A DNA stretch of 64,000 bases from sequence record MT129652.1; one strand, written 5' to 3'. A program made the position numbers and the translations under genes. The notes beneath the pieces were generated by a model. It saw only the letters and a program-made list of their open reading frames with translations. It was not told where the DNA came from and ran no database searches. The stretch is from Escherichia phage MN01. Positions 5,027 through 59,517 of this stretch are shown here, piece after piece. Position 1 is the stretch's first letter. Every line of letters starts with the position of its first letter.

Positions 5027-5329
5027 ATGAAAACGTATAAAGAATTTATCACCGAAGCGCGCGTAAGTGCAGGTAAATTAGAAGCCGCTGTAAATAAAAA
5101 GGCCCATTCATTTCATGATTTACCAGATAAAGACCGTAAGAAACTTGTAAGCCTTTATATTGACAAAGAGCGTATTCTAGCTCTCCCTGGCGCTAACGAA
5201 GGTAAACAGGCCAAGCCTTTGAATTCTGTCGAAAAGAAAATTGATAACTTTGCTTCTAAGTTCGGCATGTCTATGGATGACCTTCAGCAAGCGGCTATCG
5301 AAGCAGCTAAAGCAATTAAAGGTAAATAA
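5027..5329 (+). CDS. Internal head protein (IPIII/IPII-like) with capsid-targeting sequence
   Basis: Starts [11 protein letters not shown], matching the T4 internal-protein CTS MKTYQEFIAE with an I-x-E protease site; 100 aa; adjacent to e as in T4. Confidence 0.7.
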
Positions 5330-5853: not shown

Positions 5854-6153
5854 ATGAAAACTTATCAAGAATTTATTACTGAAGCCAAAGCTCCTAAAGC
5901 ATTTCAAATTGGGGTTCAGGGTAATTTAGACCAACAATATGTTGATGCTATTGTAGCAAGCCTCGGTAAACAGGGTGTACAAGTGGATTTGGTTGATTTT
6001 ACTAAAGGTAATACTTTTAATATTGTTACATCTAAAGGTTCTTTAGCTAAAGTTAAAAAGGCCTTTGGTGTAGCACAAGCATACGAAATCGACCATTCTG
6101 AATTAGAAAATAAAGGTCGCCAGAACACAATTAAAGGTTCTGGTTCTTTCTAA
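5854..6153 (+). CDS. Internal head protein (IPII-like) with capsid-targeting sequence
   Basis: Internal ATG gives MKTYQEFITEAKAPKAF...; CTS identical in pattern to T4 IP proteins; 99 aa. Confidence 0.7.
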   Translation: MKTYQEFITEAKAPKAFQIGVQGNLDQQYVDAIVASLGKQGVQVDLVDFTKGNTFNIVTSKGSLAKVKKAFGVAQAYEIDHSELENKGRQNTIKGSGSF

Positions 6154-10783: not shown

Positions 10784-11059
10784 ATGGTATACAAGGTTTG
10801 GACGTATATCTCTATTTTGATATTTCTGGTTCTGGTTTTTGTTCCTATGCAACAGGACCAGGAAAGGTATGAGCGCGAAGTCGAAATCGTGGCAAGTACC
10901 TATCACTCGTTCAATAAAGAGTGTCCTAATAAAAATGGAATAAGCCTGCAACAAGCATACTATTTGTCAACGGTCACCAGTCCAAAACAACGGGTCTGGG
11001 TCGAACGTAATTTTGCAAGTTTATTTTCAGAGTACTGCTTTAATTTTAAACGTTTATAA
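10784..11059 (+). CDS. Hypothetical membrane protein
   Basis: 91 aa; N-terminal hydrophobic helix ISILIFLVLVFVP; late-promoter-like TATAAATA at 11055-11062 at its 3-prime end. Confidence 0.45.
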   Translation: MVYKVWTYISILIFLVLVFVPMQQDQERYEREVEIVASTYHSFNKECPNKNGISLQQAYYLSTVTSPKQRVWVERNFASLFSEYCFNFKRL

Positions 11060-11131
11060 ATACAGTTGCTAACTAGTATTCCGCTATGTTAAGGCTGCAA
11101 AGCGTAATCATGACCAACAATAGGAGTCCTT

Positions 11132-42485: not shown

Positions 42486-42788
42486 ATGTTTAATCAAACC
42501 GATATGAACCGTTACTATTTTGGTCAGTTCGCTCGCCGTGATGAAAACTGTGCTGCTCTTATCGCATCAGGCATTCAAACTGGTAAATTAATAAAGCTCA
42601 AAAGCGATGTTCAACCTTCATCTGTTCGCAGCTCTCTTCGTGAGTATCTGCTTGCAGGCGGTGAAGTATATGTTATCGCTGAACCTTTTGTTAACGTGTG
42701 TGATGATTACACAATTAGTGTGACTGTTATGCACCCAACTACTGGGAAAATTCGTTGTCTGACTATGCACAACTATGAGTTGGCGTAA
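42486..42788 (+). CDS. Hypothetical protein
   Basis: 100 aa; terminator follows. Confidence 0.5.
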   Translation: MFNQTDMNRYYFGQFARRDENCAALIASGIQTGKLIKLKSDVQPSSVRSSLREYLLAGGEVYVIAEPFVNVCDDYTISVTVMHPTTGKIRCLTMHNYELA

Positions 42789-42795
42789 GTGAACA

Positions 42796-42818
42796 AAGGG
42801 GCTTACAGCCCCTTTTTC
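42796..42818 (+). terminator. Rho-independent terminator
   Basis: GGGGC-TTACA-GCCCC + TTTTT. Confidence 0.6.
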
Positions 42819-42856
42819 TTATGTTATAATGACTCTATCAACTACTGGAGAATAAA

Positions 42857-43174
42857 ATGAAAACCATTGATTGCAAGGCAGAATACAAAGTTTATTATCA
42901 TGGGTCAAGCTCTAATGCTGGAATCCAAAATATGCTTTGTCCTCCTGATGCAACTGGTGTTCTGTCAGAAGTTGGACGTAAGAAAAATTTAGGGCGTGTG
43001 TTTTTTACTGAAGATATTGGTTTGGCGCGTATCTATGCAGGAAGAGCAGCTCGCTCATATGGAGGAGAACCCCGTCTTTATCGTGTGATTGCACCGGTTG
43101 ACGTGGTTTGTTTAAATGATACTAAAGGCGCAACAGTTTATCACGCTGCCTGGGCCTTTTGTGAGGAAATCTAA
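42857..43174 (+). CDS. Hypothetical protein
   Basis: 105 aa ORF. Confidence 0.5.
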   Translation: MKTIDCKAEYKVYYHGSSSNAGIQNMLCPPDATGVLSEVGRKKNLGRVFFTEDIGLARIYAGRAARSYGGEPRLYRVIAPVDVVCLNDTKGATVYHAAWAFCEEI

Positions 43175-43675: not shown

Positions 43676-43969
43676 ATGAAAAAGTTATTAATCGCGGCAA
43701 TTCTTACCGTAGCATCATGTGGTACAGCTCCAGTTACTGCTGGACTTGATAAAGACCTTTGTGAGTGGTCTATGACTGCCGACCAGACTGATGTTGAACA
43801 TCAGATTTATGCTGATATCATGAACATAACTAAACGTGACCGCCCTGATATGGTTAAAGAAGTATCTGACCAATTGACTTCTGGTGACGTTATGCAGTAT
43901 AACTATGTTCTGTATTGCGATGCTTCATTTGACAATAGCAAAATTGTTCAATGGGTTACAGGTGAATAA
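43676..43969 (+). CDS. sp: Spackle-like periplasmic protein (possible superinfection exclusion)
   Basis: 97 aa with signal peptide MKKLLIAAILTVASCGTAPVTA; same size and position (between 41 and 61) as T4 Spackle. Confidence 0.5.
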   Translation: MKKLLIAAILTVASCGTAPVTAGLDKDLCEWSMTADQTDVEHQIYADIMNITKRDRPDMVKEVSDQLTSGDVMQYNYVLYCDASFDNSKIVQWVTGE

Positions 43970-43970
43970 A

Positions 43971-44408
43971 ATGATTAACAGAAATTTAGTTATCAAAAAA
44001 CTTCGCTGTAAAAATCCAAATGCACAGGCATACCGGGTGTTTTGGAGCGATGAAATTCAATACCTGGGTTATTTTCTTGTTGATAGTGATGACAGAATTA
44101 CGTTTGCTCATAAGCTTCTTAACAAAGAATTAAACCATTGGCAAGAACTTATTGCAGTCAAGTCTAAATTATTTTCGCGCAATACAATGCACCAATTGGT
44201 TTATTTTTTCGCTGATGGTATTCCTGACAAGGTTGAATTTGATGGGTTTGAATTTAAAGACATCAACCCTGACAATGAATTGAATGACAGTATTGTTAAT
44301 ATGGGTATCCCAGGTAAGTACATTAAAAACAGTCTTTTGAAACTTCTGGAAACCCCTGTATATTCAGTAGACGACCAAATTTTTAATGCCTTTATGAAGC
44401 GAGATTAA
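43971..44408 (+). CDS. Hypothetical protein ending DDQIFNAFMKRD
   Basis: 145 aa; C-terminal 11 codons plus junction repeated at the end of the next gene. Confidence 0.5.
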   Translation: MINRNLVIKKLRCKNPNAQAYRVFWSDEIQYLGYFLVDSDDRITFAHKLLNKELNHWQELIAVKSKLFSRNTMHQLVYFFADGIPDKVEFDGFEFKDINPDNELNDSIVNMGIPGKYIKNSLLKLLETPVYSVDDQIFNAFMKRD

Positions 44409-44409
44409 T

Positions 44410-44778
44410 ATGTATATTCAAAGCGATTTATCTTATCTGAATTTTGAATTAGTTAAAAATAATGATGGTAATGCTCATTATGAATTCCGTGAACCCAGGT
44501 TTAATCAGGCGATTGGTTATATCATCGTTAAAGATGATGTTATCATAAAGGCTCGCTCATTTATGGTAATGAATGGGCCTTATGAAGATACTCGTGGCTA
44601 TCCATTTGATAAAAAGAATGTACGCGATTGTGCAGCATGGATAACCGGAAACCCTGAAATTGGGGTCATGTTATCTACTGAAGCAAATGACATTCTGGAT
44701 GCTGGCTGGGTTAAAGCTCAAGAACCGCCTACTGATATTGATGACCAGATTTTTAATGCTTTCATGAAGCGAGGTTAA
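44410..44778 (+). CDS. Hypothetical protein ending DDQIFNAFMKRG
   Basis: 122 aa; shares only the C-terminal block with the upstream gene. Confidence 0.5.
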   Translation: MYIQSDLSYLNFELVKNNDGNAHYEFREPRFNQAIGYIIVKDDVIIKARSFMVMNGPYEDTRGYPFDKKNVRDCAAWITGNPEIGVMLSTEANDILDAGWVKAQEPPTDIDDQIFNAFMKRG

Positions 44779-44779
44779 T

Positions 44780-44971
44780 ATGACTGCAATGTGTACGGGC
44801 TCTAAGATTTCGGTCTTCCAGATTTTTGAAGAATATGAAATCGTGTCGCAAGACCAAGAAGCAATCCATGTTATTGCTGATGATGGGGTTACCTGGATTA
44901 TTCCGTTGTATCATGAAGACACTTATGAAGTGACTGATGCAAATGGTGATAAAGCTATCTTCGTTGTATAA
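44780..44971 (+). CDS. Hypothetical small protein
   Basis: 63 aa ORF. Confidence 0.4.
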   Translation: MTAMCTGSKISVFQIFEEYEIVSQDQEAIHVIADDGVTWIIPLYHEDTYEVTDANGDKAIFVV

Positions 44972-44974
44972 ATA
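44967..44974 (+). promoter_or_regulatory. Late promoter (TATAAATA)
   Basis: Exact T4 late-promoter consensus 17 nt upstream of the ATG at 44991. Confidence 0.45.
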
Positions 44975-44990
44975 GCGGAAAGGGGGTGTT

Positions 44991-45158
44991 ATGAAAACAT
45001 TCAAAGATTTTATCAACGAAGATATGGTTGCCGGTGATGCAGGCGGAAACCCAACTAATATCGCAACAGGTACCACTTCCGGGGCAGTTGTCAATAAAGG
45101 CCCTGAACAAATCCCATCAAAAAAGCGTAAGAACAAAGACGATAAACCTACAGTATAA
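44991..45158 (+). CDS. Hypothetical small protein with CTS-like N-terminus (MKTFKDFINED)
   Basis: 55 aa; N-terminus resembles the internal-protein capsid-targeting sequence; late promoter upstream; reading frame depends on the A-run at 45117-45124. Confidence 0.35.
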   Translation: MKTFKDFINEDMVAGDAGGNPTNIATGTTSGAVVNKGPEQIPSKKRKNKDDKPTV

Positions 45159-45190
45159 TGGTCCTTCGGGGCCATTGAAATGAGGAAACT

Positions 45191-46219
45191 ATGTCATATA
45201 TTGATAAAGAATTTGCAGTCAGAGCTTTATCGTATCAACCACGTTATAGAGAAGTCACCGGGAGCACATTTAAGGCAAACTGTCGTTGCAAGGTTTGCGG
45301 TGACTCTCAGAAAGATTCACACAAGGCCCGATTCTGGGCGTATACCAATCCGGCTGACGGTGCGGTTTACGTGAAATGTTTTAACTGTGACTACTCCACG
45401 CATATAAGCAAATACATAAAAGAGTTTGAGCCTGATTTACATCGGGAATATATGGTTGAGAAGTATAAGGAGAATGCCTTTGGCAGACAACGTAATGAAG
45501 TTGCAGAAACTCCGAAAGAACCAGAAAAAACTCCGGTTATTGAGCAACTTGCTTTTTGCGAAAGAATCGATACTTTACCAGAAGCGCATCCGATAGTTAA
45601 GTATGTAAAAAGTCGGTGTATTCCGAGCAATGTTTGGAACCGGTTATGGTTTACAAACAAATGGCCTGCATTAGTTAACTCCGTTAATCCTGGGACGTAT
45701 AAGAATGAAACGAATGAACCACGCTTGGTTATTCCTATCTTCAACGGCAAAAAAGAAATCGAATCTTTCCAAGGACGAGCTCTTCGCAAAGATGCACCAC
45801 AAAAATATATCACAATCAAAGCCCACCCAGAAGCTTCCAAAGTCTATGGTGTAGACAAGATTGACGAACGCAAGCGCGTGTGGGTAATGGAAGGTCCGAT
45901 TGATAGTTTGTTTATCCCTAACAGCATTGCGATAACCGGTGGAACATTAGCATTGGAAGCCGTTCCTTATGCAGAAACCCGAGTATGGGTAATGGACAAC
46001 GAGCCAAGACATCCTGATACGATTAAACGTATGAAGAAACTTGTTGAAGCCGGTGAAGCCGTTATGTTCTGGGACAATGCACCATGGCATACGAAAGACA
46101 TAAATGAGATGGTTAAATCAGAGGGTGCAACCCCTGAACAAATCGAATCATATATGGCCGATAACGTTACTCAAGGGCTGCTGGCGAGAATGCGACTTTC
46201 GAAGTACGCAAAAGTTTAG
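45191..46219 (+). CDS. 61: DNA primase gp61
   Basis: N-terminal zinc-binding CRCKVCGDS...CFNC, TOPRIM-like core; 342 aa as in T4. Confidence 0.9.
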   Translation: MSYIDKEFAVRALSYQPRYREVTGSTFKANCRCKVCGDSQKDSHKARFWAYTNPADGAVYVKCFNCDYSTHISKYIKEFEPDLHREYMVEKYKENAFGRQRNEVAETPKEPEKTPVIEQLAFCERIDTLPEAHPIVKYVKSRCIPSNVWNRLWFTNKWPALVNSVNPGTYKNETNEPRLVIPIFNGKKEIESFQGRALRKDAPQKYITIKAHPEASKVYGVDKIDERKRVWVMEGPIDSLFIPNSIAITGGTLALEAVPYAETRVWVMDNEPRHPDTIKRMKKLVEAGEAVMFWDNAPWHTKDINEMVKSEGATPEQIESYMADNVTQGLLARMRLSKYAKV

Positions 46220-46416
46220 GAAGGGATTCCGGTAAAGTAACCGATGATGGAATGGATATGTTCCATTGTGACCTGGGGTAAGTGTACCCCTTGTGATGCA
46301 GCGATAGGCACAACCAGTAAGTTCCACAGAAAAACATCAAGAGCTAAAAAGCCCATGATTAGTTTTTTGTCTTTCTTACTGGTTAATTTCCAAATCTGAT
46401 AGAATAATGTTCCCAT
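46216..46416 (-). CDS. Hypothetical small membrane protein, minus strand (paralog 2)
   Basis: 66 aa; GGTGG SD on the minus strand; LWNLLVVPIAASQG motif shared with the neighbouring minus-strand gene. Confidence 0.45.
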   Translation of the reverse strand: MGTLFYQIWKLTSKKDKKLIMGFLALDVFLWNLLVVPIAASQGVHLPQVTMEHIHSIIGYFTGIPS

Positions 46417-47508: not shown

Positions 47509-47516
47509 TATAAATA
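47509..47516 (+). promoter_or_regulatory. Late promoter (TATAAATA) for soc
   Basis: Exact TATAAATA about 32 nt upstream of the soc ATG. Confidence 0.55.
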
Positions 47517-57657: not shown

Positions 57658-59490
57658 ATGATGATTAATAATGAAATTAAAGTACTCTCGGACGTTGAGC
57701 ATATCAAAAAACGTTCCGGGATGTATATTGGTTCCAGTTCAAATGAAGCGCATGAGCGATTCTTGTTTGGTGAATATAAGTCCGTAAGCTATGTTCCTGG
57801 TATTGTAAAACTGATTGATGAAATTATCGATAACTCTGTTGATGAAGCAATTCGCACCAGTTTTAAATTTGCCAATAAAATTGATGTCCAAATTAAAGAT
57901 AATCAGATTTCGGTTTCCGATAATGGCCGTGGTATTCCACAGGCAATGGTTACAGACCAAAACGGTGAACAAATCCCTGGCCCTGTTGCAGCATGGACTA
58001 TTCCAAAAGCTGGTGGTAACTTCGGCGATGATGCTGAACGTAAAACTGGCGGGATGAACGGCGTCGGGTCTTCTCTGACCAATATTTTCTCTGTATTGTT
58101 TACCGGGATTACCGCTGATGGTGCAAATGAAATCACCGTTAACTGCTCCAATGGTATGGAAAACAAATGTTGGTCGACTAAGAAATCAAAAGGTAAAGGT
58201 ACGACTGTTATATTTATTCCAGACTTTAGTCACTTTGAAGAAAATAGTCTGTCCCAGATTTATCTGGATATTACATTGGACCGTCTGCAGACTCTTGCGG
58301 TTGTTTATCCGGATATTCAGTTTACCTTTAATGGTAAAAAGGTTGATGGTAATTTCAAAAAGTTTGCCAAGCAATTCGGAACCGAAGTTGTTATCCAGGA
58401 AACTGATACAGTATCGATGGCCTTTACGACTAGTCCGGATGGTTTCCGTCAGTTGACTTATGTCAACAACATTCATACAAAGAATGGTGGGCACCACGTT
58501 GAATGTGTTATGGATGATATCTGTGAACATCTTCAACCAGCCATTAAACGCAAATATAAAGGCATTGAGGTGACCAAGGCACGAGTTAAAGAATGTCTCA
58601 CCATGCTTATGTTCATCCGCGATATGAGCAACATGCGATTTGATTCCCAGACTAAGGAGCGATTGACTTCTCCGGCTGGTGAAATTCGAAATCACATTAA
58701 GATTGATGCCAAGAAAATCGCGCAAGCTATTCTGAAAAATGAACCGCTGATTATGCCGATTGTTGAAGCTGCATTAGCCCGTAAATTGGCAGCAGAGAAA
58801 GCAGCAGAGACAAAGGCGAATAAGAAAGCTTCGAAGGCCAAGGTGCAGAAACATATCAAGGCAAACGAATGGGGTAATGATAAACTGGAAACGACTCTGT
58901 TCCTGACCGAAGGTGATTCCGCAACCGGTCCATTTATCAAGGTTCGCGACCGTGAATTGCAAGGTGCTTATCCGTTACGCGGTAAGTTCAAAAACACATG
59001 GGGTCTGAAAGCTGTTGACGTTATGAAGAACGCCGAAGCCTTTGATGTGTGTGCGATTACTGGTTTAACGATTGGACAACCGGCCGAGAATATGAATTAC
59101 CGAAACATTGCTATCATGACAGATGCGGATGTGGATGGTGTCGGTAGTATCTATCCATCGTTATTGGCGTTTTTCAGTAACTGGCCAGAGTTGTTCCATG
59201 AAGGACGAATTCGCTTTGTGAAAACTCCTGTTATTATTGCGCAGCTCAAAGATAAACAAGAATGGTTCTATTCTCTTCCTGACTATGAAGAAGCTAAGGA
59301 TAAACTTCCGAAGCACACCATCCGATATATCAAGGGGCTTGGTTCTCTGGAAGATGCCGAGTACAAACGCGTATTGCTCGAACCGGTATTCGAAGTTGTT
59401 GAATTACCTGACAACTGGAAAGAACTGTTCGAAATGCTCTTCGGTAAAGATTCCCAGCAGCGTAAAGATTGGATGAATGCGACACTATAA
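57658..59490 (+). CDS. 39: DNA topoisomerase II large subunit gp39, fused with the gene 60 portion
   Basis: GHKL ATPase motifs (IDNSVDEA, DNGRGIP, GGMNGVGSS) and C-terminal TOPRIM region in one 610 aa frame; close match to T4 gp39. Confidence 0.95.
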   Translation: MMINNEIKVLSDVEHIKKRSGMYIGSSSNEAHERFLFGEYKSVSYVPGIVKLIDEIIDNSVDEAIRTSFKFANKIDVQIKDNQISVSDNGRGIPQAMVTDQNGEQIPGPVAAWTIPKAGGNFGDDAERKTGGMNGVGSSLTNIFSVLFTGITADGANEITVNCSNGMENKCWSTKKSKGKGTTVIFIPDFSHFEENSLSQIYLDITLDRLQTLAVVYPDIQFTFNGKKVDGNFKKFAKQFGTEVVIQETDTVSMAFTTSPDGFRQLTYVNNIHTKNGGHHVECVMDDICEHLQPAIKRKYKGIEVTKARVKECLTMLMFIRDMSNMRFDSQTKERLTSPAGEIRNHIKIDAKKIAQAILKNEPLIMPIVEAALARKLAAEKAAETKANKKASKAKVQKHIKANEWGNDKLETTLFLTEGDSATGPFIKVRDRELQGAYPLRGKFKNTWGLKAVDVMKNAEAFDVCAITGLTIGQPAENMNYRNIAIMTDADVDGVGSIYPSLLAFFSNWPELFHEGRIRFVKTPVIIAQLKDKQEWFYSLPDYEEAKDKLPKHTIRYIKGLGSLEDAEYKRVLLEPVFEVVELPDNWKELFEMLFGKDSQQRKDWMNATL

Positions 59491-59517
59491 ATAGATACGG
59501 GAGAATATTCTCCCGTC
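59486..59517 (+). promoter_or_regulatory. Late promoter (TATAAATA) overlapping the gene 39 stop, followed by a hairpin
   Basis: TATAAATA at 59486-59493; inverted repeat ACGGGAGAATATTCTCCCGT at 59498-59517. Confidence 0.4.

Follow-up and report, generated by a model that had tools for sequence, protein, structure and literature searches.

In bacteriophage T4, maturation by gp21 strips 65 residues from the major capsid protein gp23 (PMC9546572), and residues 66-91 of gp23* make up the N-fist (PMC7136217). With its 25 residues, this element touches four subunits and has a part in building the Soc site (PMC9958956). Before the head expands, the same region is disordered and internal, and it is thought to touch the scaffold (PMC9546572). 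The small internal head proteins of T4, and Alt, are directed to the head by a capsid-targeting sequence (CTS). Within it, residues 4 and 7 chiefly determine targeting, and residues 8 and 10 determine processing (Mullaney and Black 1996, reviewed in PMC9026906). The T4 internal proteins IPII and IPIII both begin MKTYQEFIAE.

Gene 61.1 of T4 was listed, with no function, among the ORFs conserved in T4 and five relatives (Nolan et al. 2006). Time-resolved omics of T4, the only family member with such data, class the 61.1 transcript as 'early' and leave its protein undetected in the whole-cell proteome (PMC9697503 Table S2); in the same study, the ipII and ipIII transcripts are 'early' and their proteins 'late' (PMC9697503). 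The T4 head reviews consulted do not include gp61.1 among the components that they give (PMC3012670, PMC9958956). In the literature searched, no virion proteome mentioning gp61.1 was found, the gene otherwise appearing in genome tables only, and no paper was found that describes a similarity to gp23 or a role for gp61.1.

The window analyzed here is a stretch of 64,000 nucleotides from Escherichia phage MN01 (MT129652.1). Its positions 44400-46300 match the Gaprivervirus phages TH44, P479, VR20, SP18, and VR7 at 95-97% DNA identity (megablast), and its source is a VR7/SP18-like T4-type coliphage (Gaprivervirus). The annotated gene order in VR7 and SP18 is 41 - dmd - sp - 61.2-like - small ORFs - 61.1 - 61 (primase) - 56 - soc, and the ORFs of the window follow the same order. 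The 55-codon ORF upstream of the primase gene (Table 1) matches phrog_1823, the T4 gene 61.1 family, over residues 1-52 (E 1e-32), that is, over the whole short protein; its identity to VR7 gp61.1 (annotated 'conserved hypothetical protein') is 100%, and to T4 gp61.1, over residues 1-42, 86%. Position leads to the same assignment: 61.1 immediately precedes primase gene 61 in the cluster 41-dmd-sp-61.2-61.1-61. On similarity and gene order, the ORF is the ortholog of T4 gene 61.1. A primase-like ORF begins 2-47 nt past 61.1 in nearly all loci compared; in L016 the next large ORF is not primase-like. An earlier note on this DNA had placed the ORF in an early/middle replication region, which its position in the 41-61 cluster bears out; the ORF is no orphan peptide, being already annotated as gp61.1 in VR7. 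Gene 61.1 is therefore not a new element, and it is its reading as a free, tagged and cleavable copy of the N-fist that is absent from the literature searched.

The reality of the ORF, likewise proposed earlier, is borne out by the VR7 identity and by the distribution of substitutions. Pairwise comparison of 13 orthologues gave differences in the ratio 348:123:1440 at codon positions 1:2:3, which marks the + frame as coding sequence subject to purifying selection. The frame had been thought vulnerable to an A-run at 45117-45124; the run consists of six A at 45119-45124 (codons TCA AAA AAG), and the frame across it is right, given the identical VR7 protein and the Lys-rich tail in every homologue. 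An antisense ORF of 137 aa (44762..45175, - strand) covers all of 61.1 and is set aside as a shadow ORF by the codon-position pattern; the matching antisense frame stays free of stops across the 61.1 body at the 12 orthologous loci inspected. The heptamer A_AAA_AAG at 45119-45125 is of the dnaX type, slippery for -1 shifts and in frame (UCA AAA AAG), and such a shift would end the protein ...PSKKA. Frameshifting was discarded because T4 lacks the heptamer, reading CCU AAA AAG there, and there is no structure at the usual spacing; these are probably merely Lys codons.

Two further observations concern the neighborhood. The adjacent ORFs 43884..44408 (phrog_8539) and 44410..44778 (phrog_4122), both on the + strand, share the terminal motif DDQIFNAFMKR[DG], also the C-terminus of T4 gp61.2 (DDQIFNAFMNRG); from their sequences they look like tandem paralogs or carriers of a common C-terminal module. 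At 42795-42830 (+), about 400 nt past gene 41 and right after a 100-aa ORF (42486..42788), a hairpin with a T-run (AAAGGGGCTTACAGCCCCTTT TTCTT) resembles a terminator; it overlaps a sigma-70-like promoter (CTTACA-17-TATAAT) ahead of an ORF at 42857.

Table 1. Gene 61.1 of the window, its modules and flanking signals, and related features elsewhere in the window.
Feature	Position	Strand	Remarks
Upstream 63-aa ORF, phrog_3249, function unknown	44780..44971	+	TAA stop (44969-44971) inside the late-promoter motif
Exact T4-type late promoter motif TATAAATA, gp55-dependent, positions -13 to -6	44967..44974	+	predicted start ~44980
Shine-Dalgarno AGGGGG	44981..44986	+	4 nt before ATG at 44991; direct reading
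Gene 61.1 ortholog, 55 codons + TAA stop	44991..45158	+	protein MKTFKDFINEDMVAGDAGGNPTNIATGTTSGAVVNKGPEQIPSKKRKNKDDKPTV
Codons 1-10, MKTFKDFINE, capsid-targeting-like, ends in I-x-E	44991..45020	+	predicted cut after E10; aligns with gp23 F59..E65
Codons 11-38, DMVAGDAGGNPTNIATGTTSGAVVNKGP, N-fist homolog	45021..45104	+	corresponds to gp23* residues 66-93; profile and PDB searches
Codons 39-55, variable Lys-rich tail EQIPSKKRKNKDDKPTV	45105..45155	+	holds the A-run; sequence, homologues
Predicted semi-tryptic peptide DMVAGDAGGNPTNIATGTTSGAVVNK			free Asp11 N-terminus
9-bp C(UUCG)G hairpin over the stop codon, then no T-run	45156..45177	+	-12.8 kcal/mol, z -2.45
Primase gene 61, conserved downstream neighbour	45191..46219	+	ORF list, phrog match, annotated relatives
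Other exact TATAAATA	11055-11062, 47509-47516, 59486-59493	+	70, 32, 40 nt before rI (lysis inhibition), soc (capsid decoration), 39.1-like ORF (phrog_4369)
Internal head protein genes	5027..5329, 5854..6153	+	phrog_7857 'internal virion protein', phrog_2667 'internal head protein'; both with a canonical CTS

The central result is that residues 4-46 of the ORF are homologous to residues 59-101 of gp23. A profile of 72 non-identical family cores was searched against 1331 six-frame ORFs (window and T4 pieces) together with 81 gp23 N-termini. The gp23 proteins of T4, Gaprivervirus, Acinetobacter (Acj9), and RB43-type phages, among others, scored 42-50 bits (E 1e-14 to 3e-12), and no other among the 1331 ORFs rose above 6 bits; the cyanophage-type gp23 sequences compared gave no match to this profile and lack the N-fist motif. 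A narrower profile searched against all PDB chains recovered T4 gp23 chains only (E 2e-5, residues 3-39 against 58-94), and tblastn with the 55-mer reached the start of mcp/gp23 in KVP20, Aeromonas, and Proteus phages (E 6e-4 to 1e-5). Neither Pfam nor NCBIfam matched the gp61.1 protein of the window or that of T4, even at E 10. Some family members are named 'major capsid (domain-containing) protein' in NCBI and UniRef.

The family consensus fkeflnE/emVAGDsGGnpenIAsGttSGavvnkGP aligns gap-free to gp23 F59-GSFLTE65/AEIGGDHGYNATNIAAGQTSGAVTQIGP93 (slashes mark the cut), so that the gp23 cut E65/A66 (FLTE/A) falls exactly on E10/D11 (FINE/D). A hydrophobic-x-Glu ahead of MVAGD is kept in almost all short and long forms of the family examined by eye, across indels (FIKE, KLNE, PLFE, LSE). 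Divided by similarity in this way, gp61.1 comprises three modules: a capsid-targeting-like tag with a predicted gp21 site, an N-fist homolog, and a Lys-rich tail. The earlier note had proposed, from the tag, a small peptide packaged into the head; as judged from these alignments, the strongest tie to the head is the homology to the gp23 maturation site and N-fist in the rest of the ORF, not the tag.

The CTS-like character of the tag, including the I-x-E ending, had been noticed before, and the match to MKTYQEFIAE extends to all four mapped positions (F4, F7, I8, and E10 against Y4, F7, I8, and E10), which places it with the CTS-type propeptides; 7/10 residues are identical to the start of T4 IPII and IPIII, and the N-termini of T2/T6-type 61.1 are 8/10 identical to the tag. 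The likeness is specific: a relaxed CTS pattern run over six frames of the window found 3 ORF matches against 0.07 expected, a number never reached by shuffles, and the other two are the internal head protein genes at 5027 and 5854, the latter encoding a protein that starts MKTYQEFITE. Neither of these genes has an exact TATAAATA upstream. The second (5854) lies behind a sigma-70-like TATAAT, and an ORF from ~5390, between the two, reads like denV. Tags differ within the 61.1 family: JS98-type proteins begin MKSFKEVMNE, a weaker match with V7 and M8, and the Krischvirus-type short forms (MTLLEKYKQSLSE/MVAGD) have no MKTY-type tag.

The pattern is also displayed by gp23 before its cut (F59 at P7, F62 at P4, L63 at P3, E65 at P1) and by gp24 (MAKINELLRE). 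These correspondences suggest that one recognition pattern is common to the targeting tag and the gp23 propeptide end, namely Glu at P1, I/L at P3, and hydrophobic residues, for the most part aromatic, at P7 and P4.

Transcription signals were judged against the consensus and spacing reported for T4-type late promoters (PMC1524935). The exact TATAAATA announced in the earlier note is present at 44967-44974 on the coding strand, with 16 nt rather than 17 separating it from the ATG at 44991, and its placement is conserved across lineages. The bare count of exact motifs in the window is not above chance (4 found, 4.3 expected), but where they stand departs strongly from random. All four lie on the coding strand, 16-70 nt ahead of the start codons of rI, 61.1, soc, and the 39.1-like ORF, and at 2/3 of the other sites the motif overlaps the stop codon of the upstream gene, as it does at 61.1. 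Among rI, soc, and the 39.1-like ORF, two are classic late-acting genes.

A survey of 43 loci (42 related IMG/VR loci and the window), covering 135 kb around 61.1, placed 18 of its 19 coding-strand TATAAATA motifs 15-45 nt upstream of the 61.1 ATG. The exact motif stands 21-35 nt ahead of the 61.1 ATG in five sequence contexts, and the genes upstream of it are of at least two unrelated kinds. In most other lineages the site holds xxTAAATA variants, e.g., AATAAATA, GATAAATA, CATAAATA, and ATTAAATA, which fit the reported first-position looseness of T4-like late promoters (PMC1524935). In T4-type phages, no TATAAATA occurs in 5 kb at the 61.1 locus, and the 61.2 stop abuts the 61.1 ATG. From its flanking motifs, gene 61.1 looks in many lineages like a self-contained late unit within the early/middle replication cluster. 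The proposal that the ORF is driven by a late promoter thus gains from the conservation of the motif ahead of 61.1, but T4 has no such motif and its 61.1 transcript is classed early.

A hairpin follows the 61.1 stop in most lineages, its position kept and its stems quite different. In the first 40 nt past the stop, loci L008-L046 share a conserved T(A/G)ATATAATGG lead-in, followed by the hairpin, with stems such as GGCTCT/AGAGCC, GGCCTTA/TAAGGCC, GGAACCA/TGGTTCC, and GGGTCTCT/AGAGGCCC; the stem differences between lineages look like compensatory change. A T-run follows the hairpin in L016, L019, L038, L045, and L046. The window hairpin has none, was not called by the terminator scan and does not classify as an intrinsic terminator, so a late transcript may run on into primase gene 61. 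The TATAAT after the 61.1 stop could, as read from the sequence, double as a -10 element for gene 61. The T4 locus has neither TATAAATA nor hairpin at 61.1.

The family is conserved in phages of Escherichia, Klebsiella, Acinetobacter, Aeromonas, and Vibrio, with ~1450 records and 56 clusters at 50% identity. The clusters come from a profile search of 1.84 billion representatives with a narrow alignment (A1), which gave 56 matches, in short (50-70 aa) and long (120-185 aa) forms, none of them a full-length capsid protein at E <= 1e-3; to bring out the link to gp23 took the broader core profile or the PDB search. A word-indexed search with the long form added 143 more, from phages of Salmonella, Citrobacter, Yersinia, Serratia, Cronobacter, and Acinetobacter. 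The KVP40 'gp61.1' has 159 aa. RB69-type (Mosigvirus-like) phages carry the long form, and T4, JS98-type, and VR7-type phages the short one.

The N-terminal domain of the long form bears the motif W..A....IID..G.V.K.P.T..E...Y..FH..R..K and is modeled by AF2 as helical (residues 1-100, e.g., L032 and P0078; pLDDT 77-88); a Foldseek search of the long-form model against the PDB gave nothing better than E 4, and Pfam no useful match. The Glu right before MVAGD (E109) is invariant in 24/24 aligned long forms. AF2 gave pTM 0.18 for the window ORF and pLDDT <50 for the long-form core, and the core is predicted to be disordered in short and long forms alike. In tblastn with gp61.1, no cyanophage host was among the main match groups, whereas the search with gp23 did list cyanophages; on this evidence, gene 61.1 seems to go together with gp23 proteins bearing the N-fist motif, a relation that is correlation only.

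Taken together, these features are consistent with gp61.1 being a late-made, disordered substrate of the prohead protease that enters the prohead core and is cut after Glu10 to free a peptide of ~45 residues, a reading that we hold to be evenly poised between right and wrong. Under this model, gp55-RNA polymerase would transcribe 61.1 late, from ~44980, and the product would join the assembling prohead core via determinants common to the internal proteins and the gp23 N-terminus (aromatic P7 and P4). At prohead maturation, gp21 would cleave it after Glu10, and the freed peptide (DMVAGD...KKRK...) would stay with the DNA or exit with other core fragments. The long relatives (~155 aa) would take the same route, with a helical pro-domain of ~100 residues replacing the 10-residue tag. 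The location of the copied gp23 segment in the unexpanded head, inside and thought to touch the scaffold (PMC9546572), fits this model.

A bolder extension, to which we assign a low probability, is that gp61.1 would be a free-standing, protease-activated copy of the N-fist, loaded by a CTS or a pro-domain, released by gp21 and acting in trans on the shell, Soc, or the protease, either as a hitherto unrecognised factor in head maturation or as a decoy against immunity that senses proteases.

The alternative that survives best, though we still consider it improbable, keeps the link to the shell and drops the cargo. In it, gp61.1 would work outside or on the shell as a free mimic of the N-fist that competes with or replaces the gp23 N-terminus and tunes head assembly, length, or decoration, with the prohead scaffold gp22, the N-fist docking sites between capsomers, and Soc as candidate partners. 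The homology of residues 11-38 to the N-fist speaks for such a role, as do the contacts of the N-fist with four subunits and its part in the Soc site, and the head-length mutations of gp23, one within the aligned stretch (A66D) and two just downstream of it (A94V, G97S) (PMC9958956, PMC9546572). The soc gene, also behind TATAAATA, lies 2.4 kb downstream of 61.1, and the cyanophages, whose gp23 sequences compared have no N-fist motif, are not among the main groups matched by gp61.1 in tblastn. However, mimicry leaves the conserved P1 Glu, the hydrophobic P3, and the CTS-like tag unexplained. Moreover, the cryo-EM reports consulted describe no unassigned N-fist-like density, the sole extra density being helical and under gp24 (PMC9546572).

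The same conserved cleavage-site copy, in a protein predicted to be disordered, might instead serve against host defences, which we regard as distinctly less probable than mimicry. Free T4 gp21 cuts I/LxE motifs within a disordered CBASS cyclase loop and thereby triggers immunity (bioRxiv preprint, PMC12991175); by analogy, an abundant disordered copy of the best natural gp21 site could sequester protease that acts outside proheads, or keep a host sensor of gp23 or gp21 occupied, and so blunt 'tripwire' defences. The argument is one of analogy alone, no defence system was found to be genetically linked, and a decoy would need neither the 28 conserved residues past the cut nor a CTS-like tag. 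A decoy for Lit was dropped: the Gol region of gp23, which Lit senses, is taken to lie downstream of the segment copied in gp61.1, past the end of the similarity.

Slightly less credible again is an early role beside the primase-helicase, in which gp61.1 would be a replication accessory and TATAAATA would serve mainly the late transcription of primase gene 61. That gene 61 comes right after 61.1 in nearly all loci compared (not L016) agrees with this, as do the early T4 transcript, with no T4 promoter of its own, and the likely read-through into gene 61 past the window hairpin. The homology of gp61.1 is nevertheless specific to a capsid segment and extends to no replication protein, and in several lineages the hairpin between 61.1 and 61 carries a T-run, so that a late unit there would stop before the primase gene. 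That 61.1 is a non-functional remnant of a partial gene 23 duplication behind a chance TATAAATA is very hard to credit, for although the exact 8-mer is as frequent in the window as chance predicts, conservation contradicts it: the family is large and diverse (~1450 records, 56 clusters at 50% identity), substitutions are strongly concentrated at third codon positions, and the promoter motif is found again in the same place within dissimilar sequence.

Few small ORFs are conserved, as gene 61.1 is, across T4-likes of enterobacteria, Acinetobacter, Aeromonas, and Vibrio. If the prohead-substrate model is true, a pathway of head assembly believed to be fully inventoried would gain a component, and the model offers a cheap hypothesis in the best-studied phage. 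The putative common recognition pattern bears on the design of T4 protein-packaging vectors and on the ways in which host tripwires may mimic gp21 substrates.

Set beside the known constituents of the T4 head, gp61.1 holds ~43 residues of gp23 and no HK97-fold body (A, P, and I domains), and therefore cannot be a shell subunit; with 55 residues and homology limited to gp23 59-101, it falls outside the gp23 family (HK97 fold, Pfam Gp23). The known gp23 paralog gp24 shows the reverse, keeping the fold and lacking the segment copied in gp61.1. The prohead core proteins gp67 and gp68 are small, partly charged or low-complexity gp21 substrates that are cut into peptides; gp61.1 would resemble them in gp21 processing only if the model holds, and it differs in that no similarity is evident on reading and in that their genes lie in the late head cluster, not in the replication cluster. 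Within its own family, the window protein shares with T4 gp61.1 (NP_049649, MKTFKEFIKEDMVAGDSGGNPENISIGTTSGAVVNKGPEQIPKKKKEESKEKEE) the MVAGD...IA.G.TSG.V.NKGP core, the Lys-rich tail, and the place between 61.2-like genes and gene 61, whereas the T4 copy is without the exact late promoter motif and the C(UUCG)G hairpin; the long relatives (KVP40/Acj9 'gp61.1', phrog_2086) have a helical N-terminal domain of ~100 aa instead of the 10-residue tag. The internal proteins IPI, IPII, and IPIII, like gp61.1, are small and begin with a decapeptide matching at positions 4, 7, 8, and 10 and ending in I-x-E; the transcripts of ipII, ipIII, and 61.1 are all early in T4. Past the predicted cut site the resemblance ends, and gene 61.1 lies outside the variable internal-protein locus and is conserved over a far broader range of phages than any of the internal proteins.
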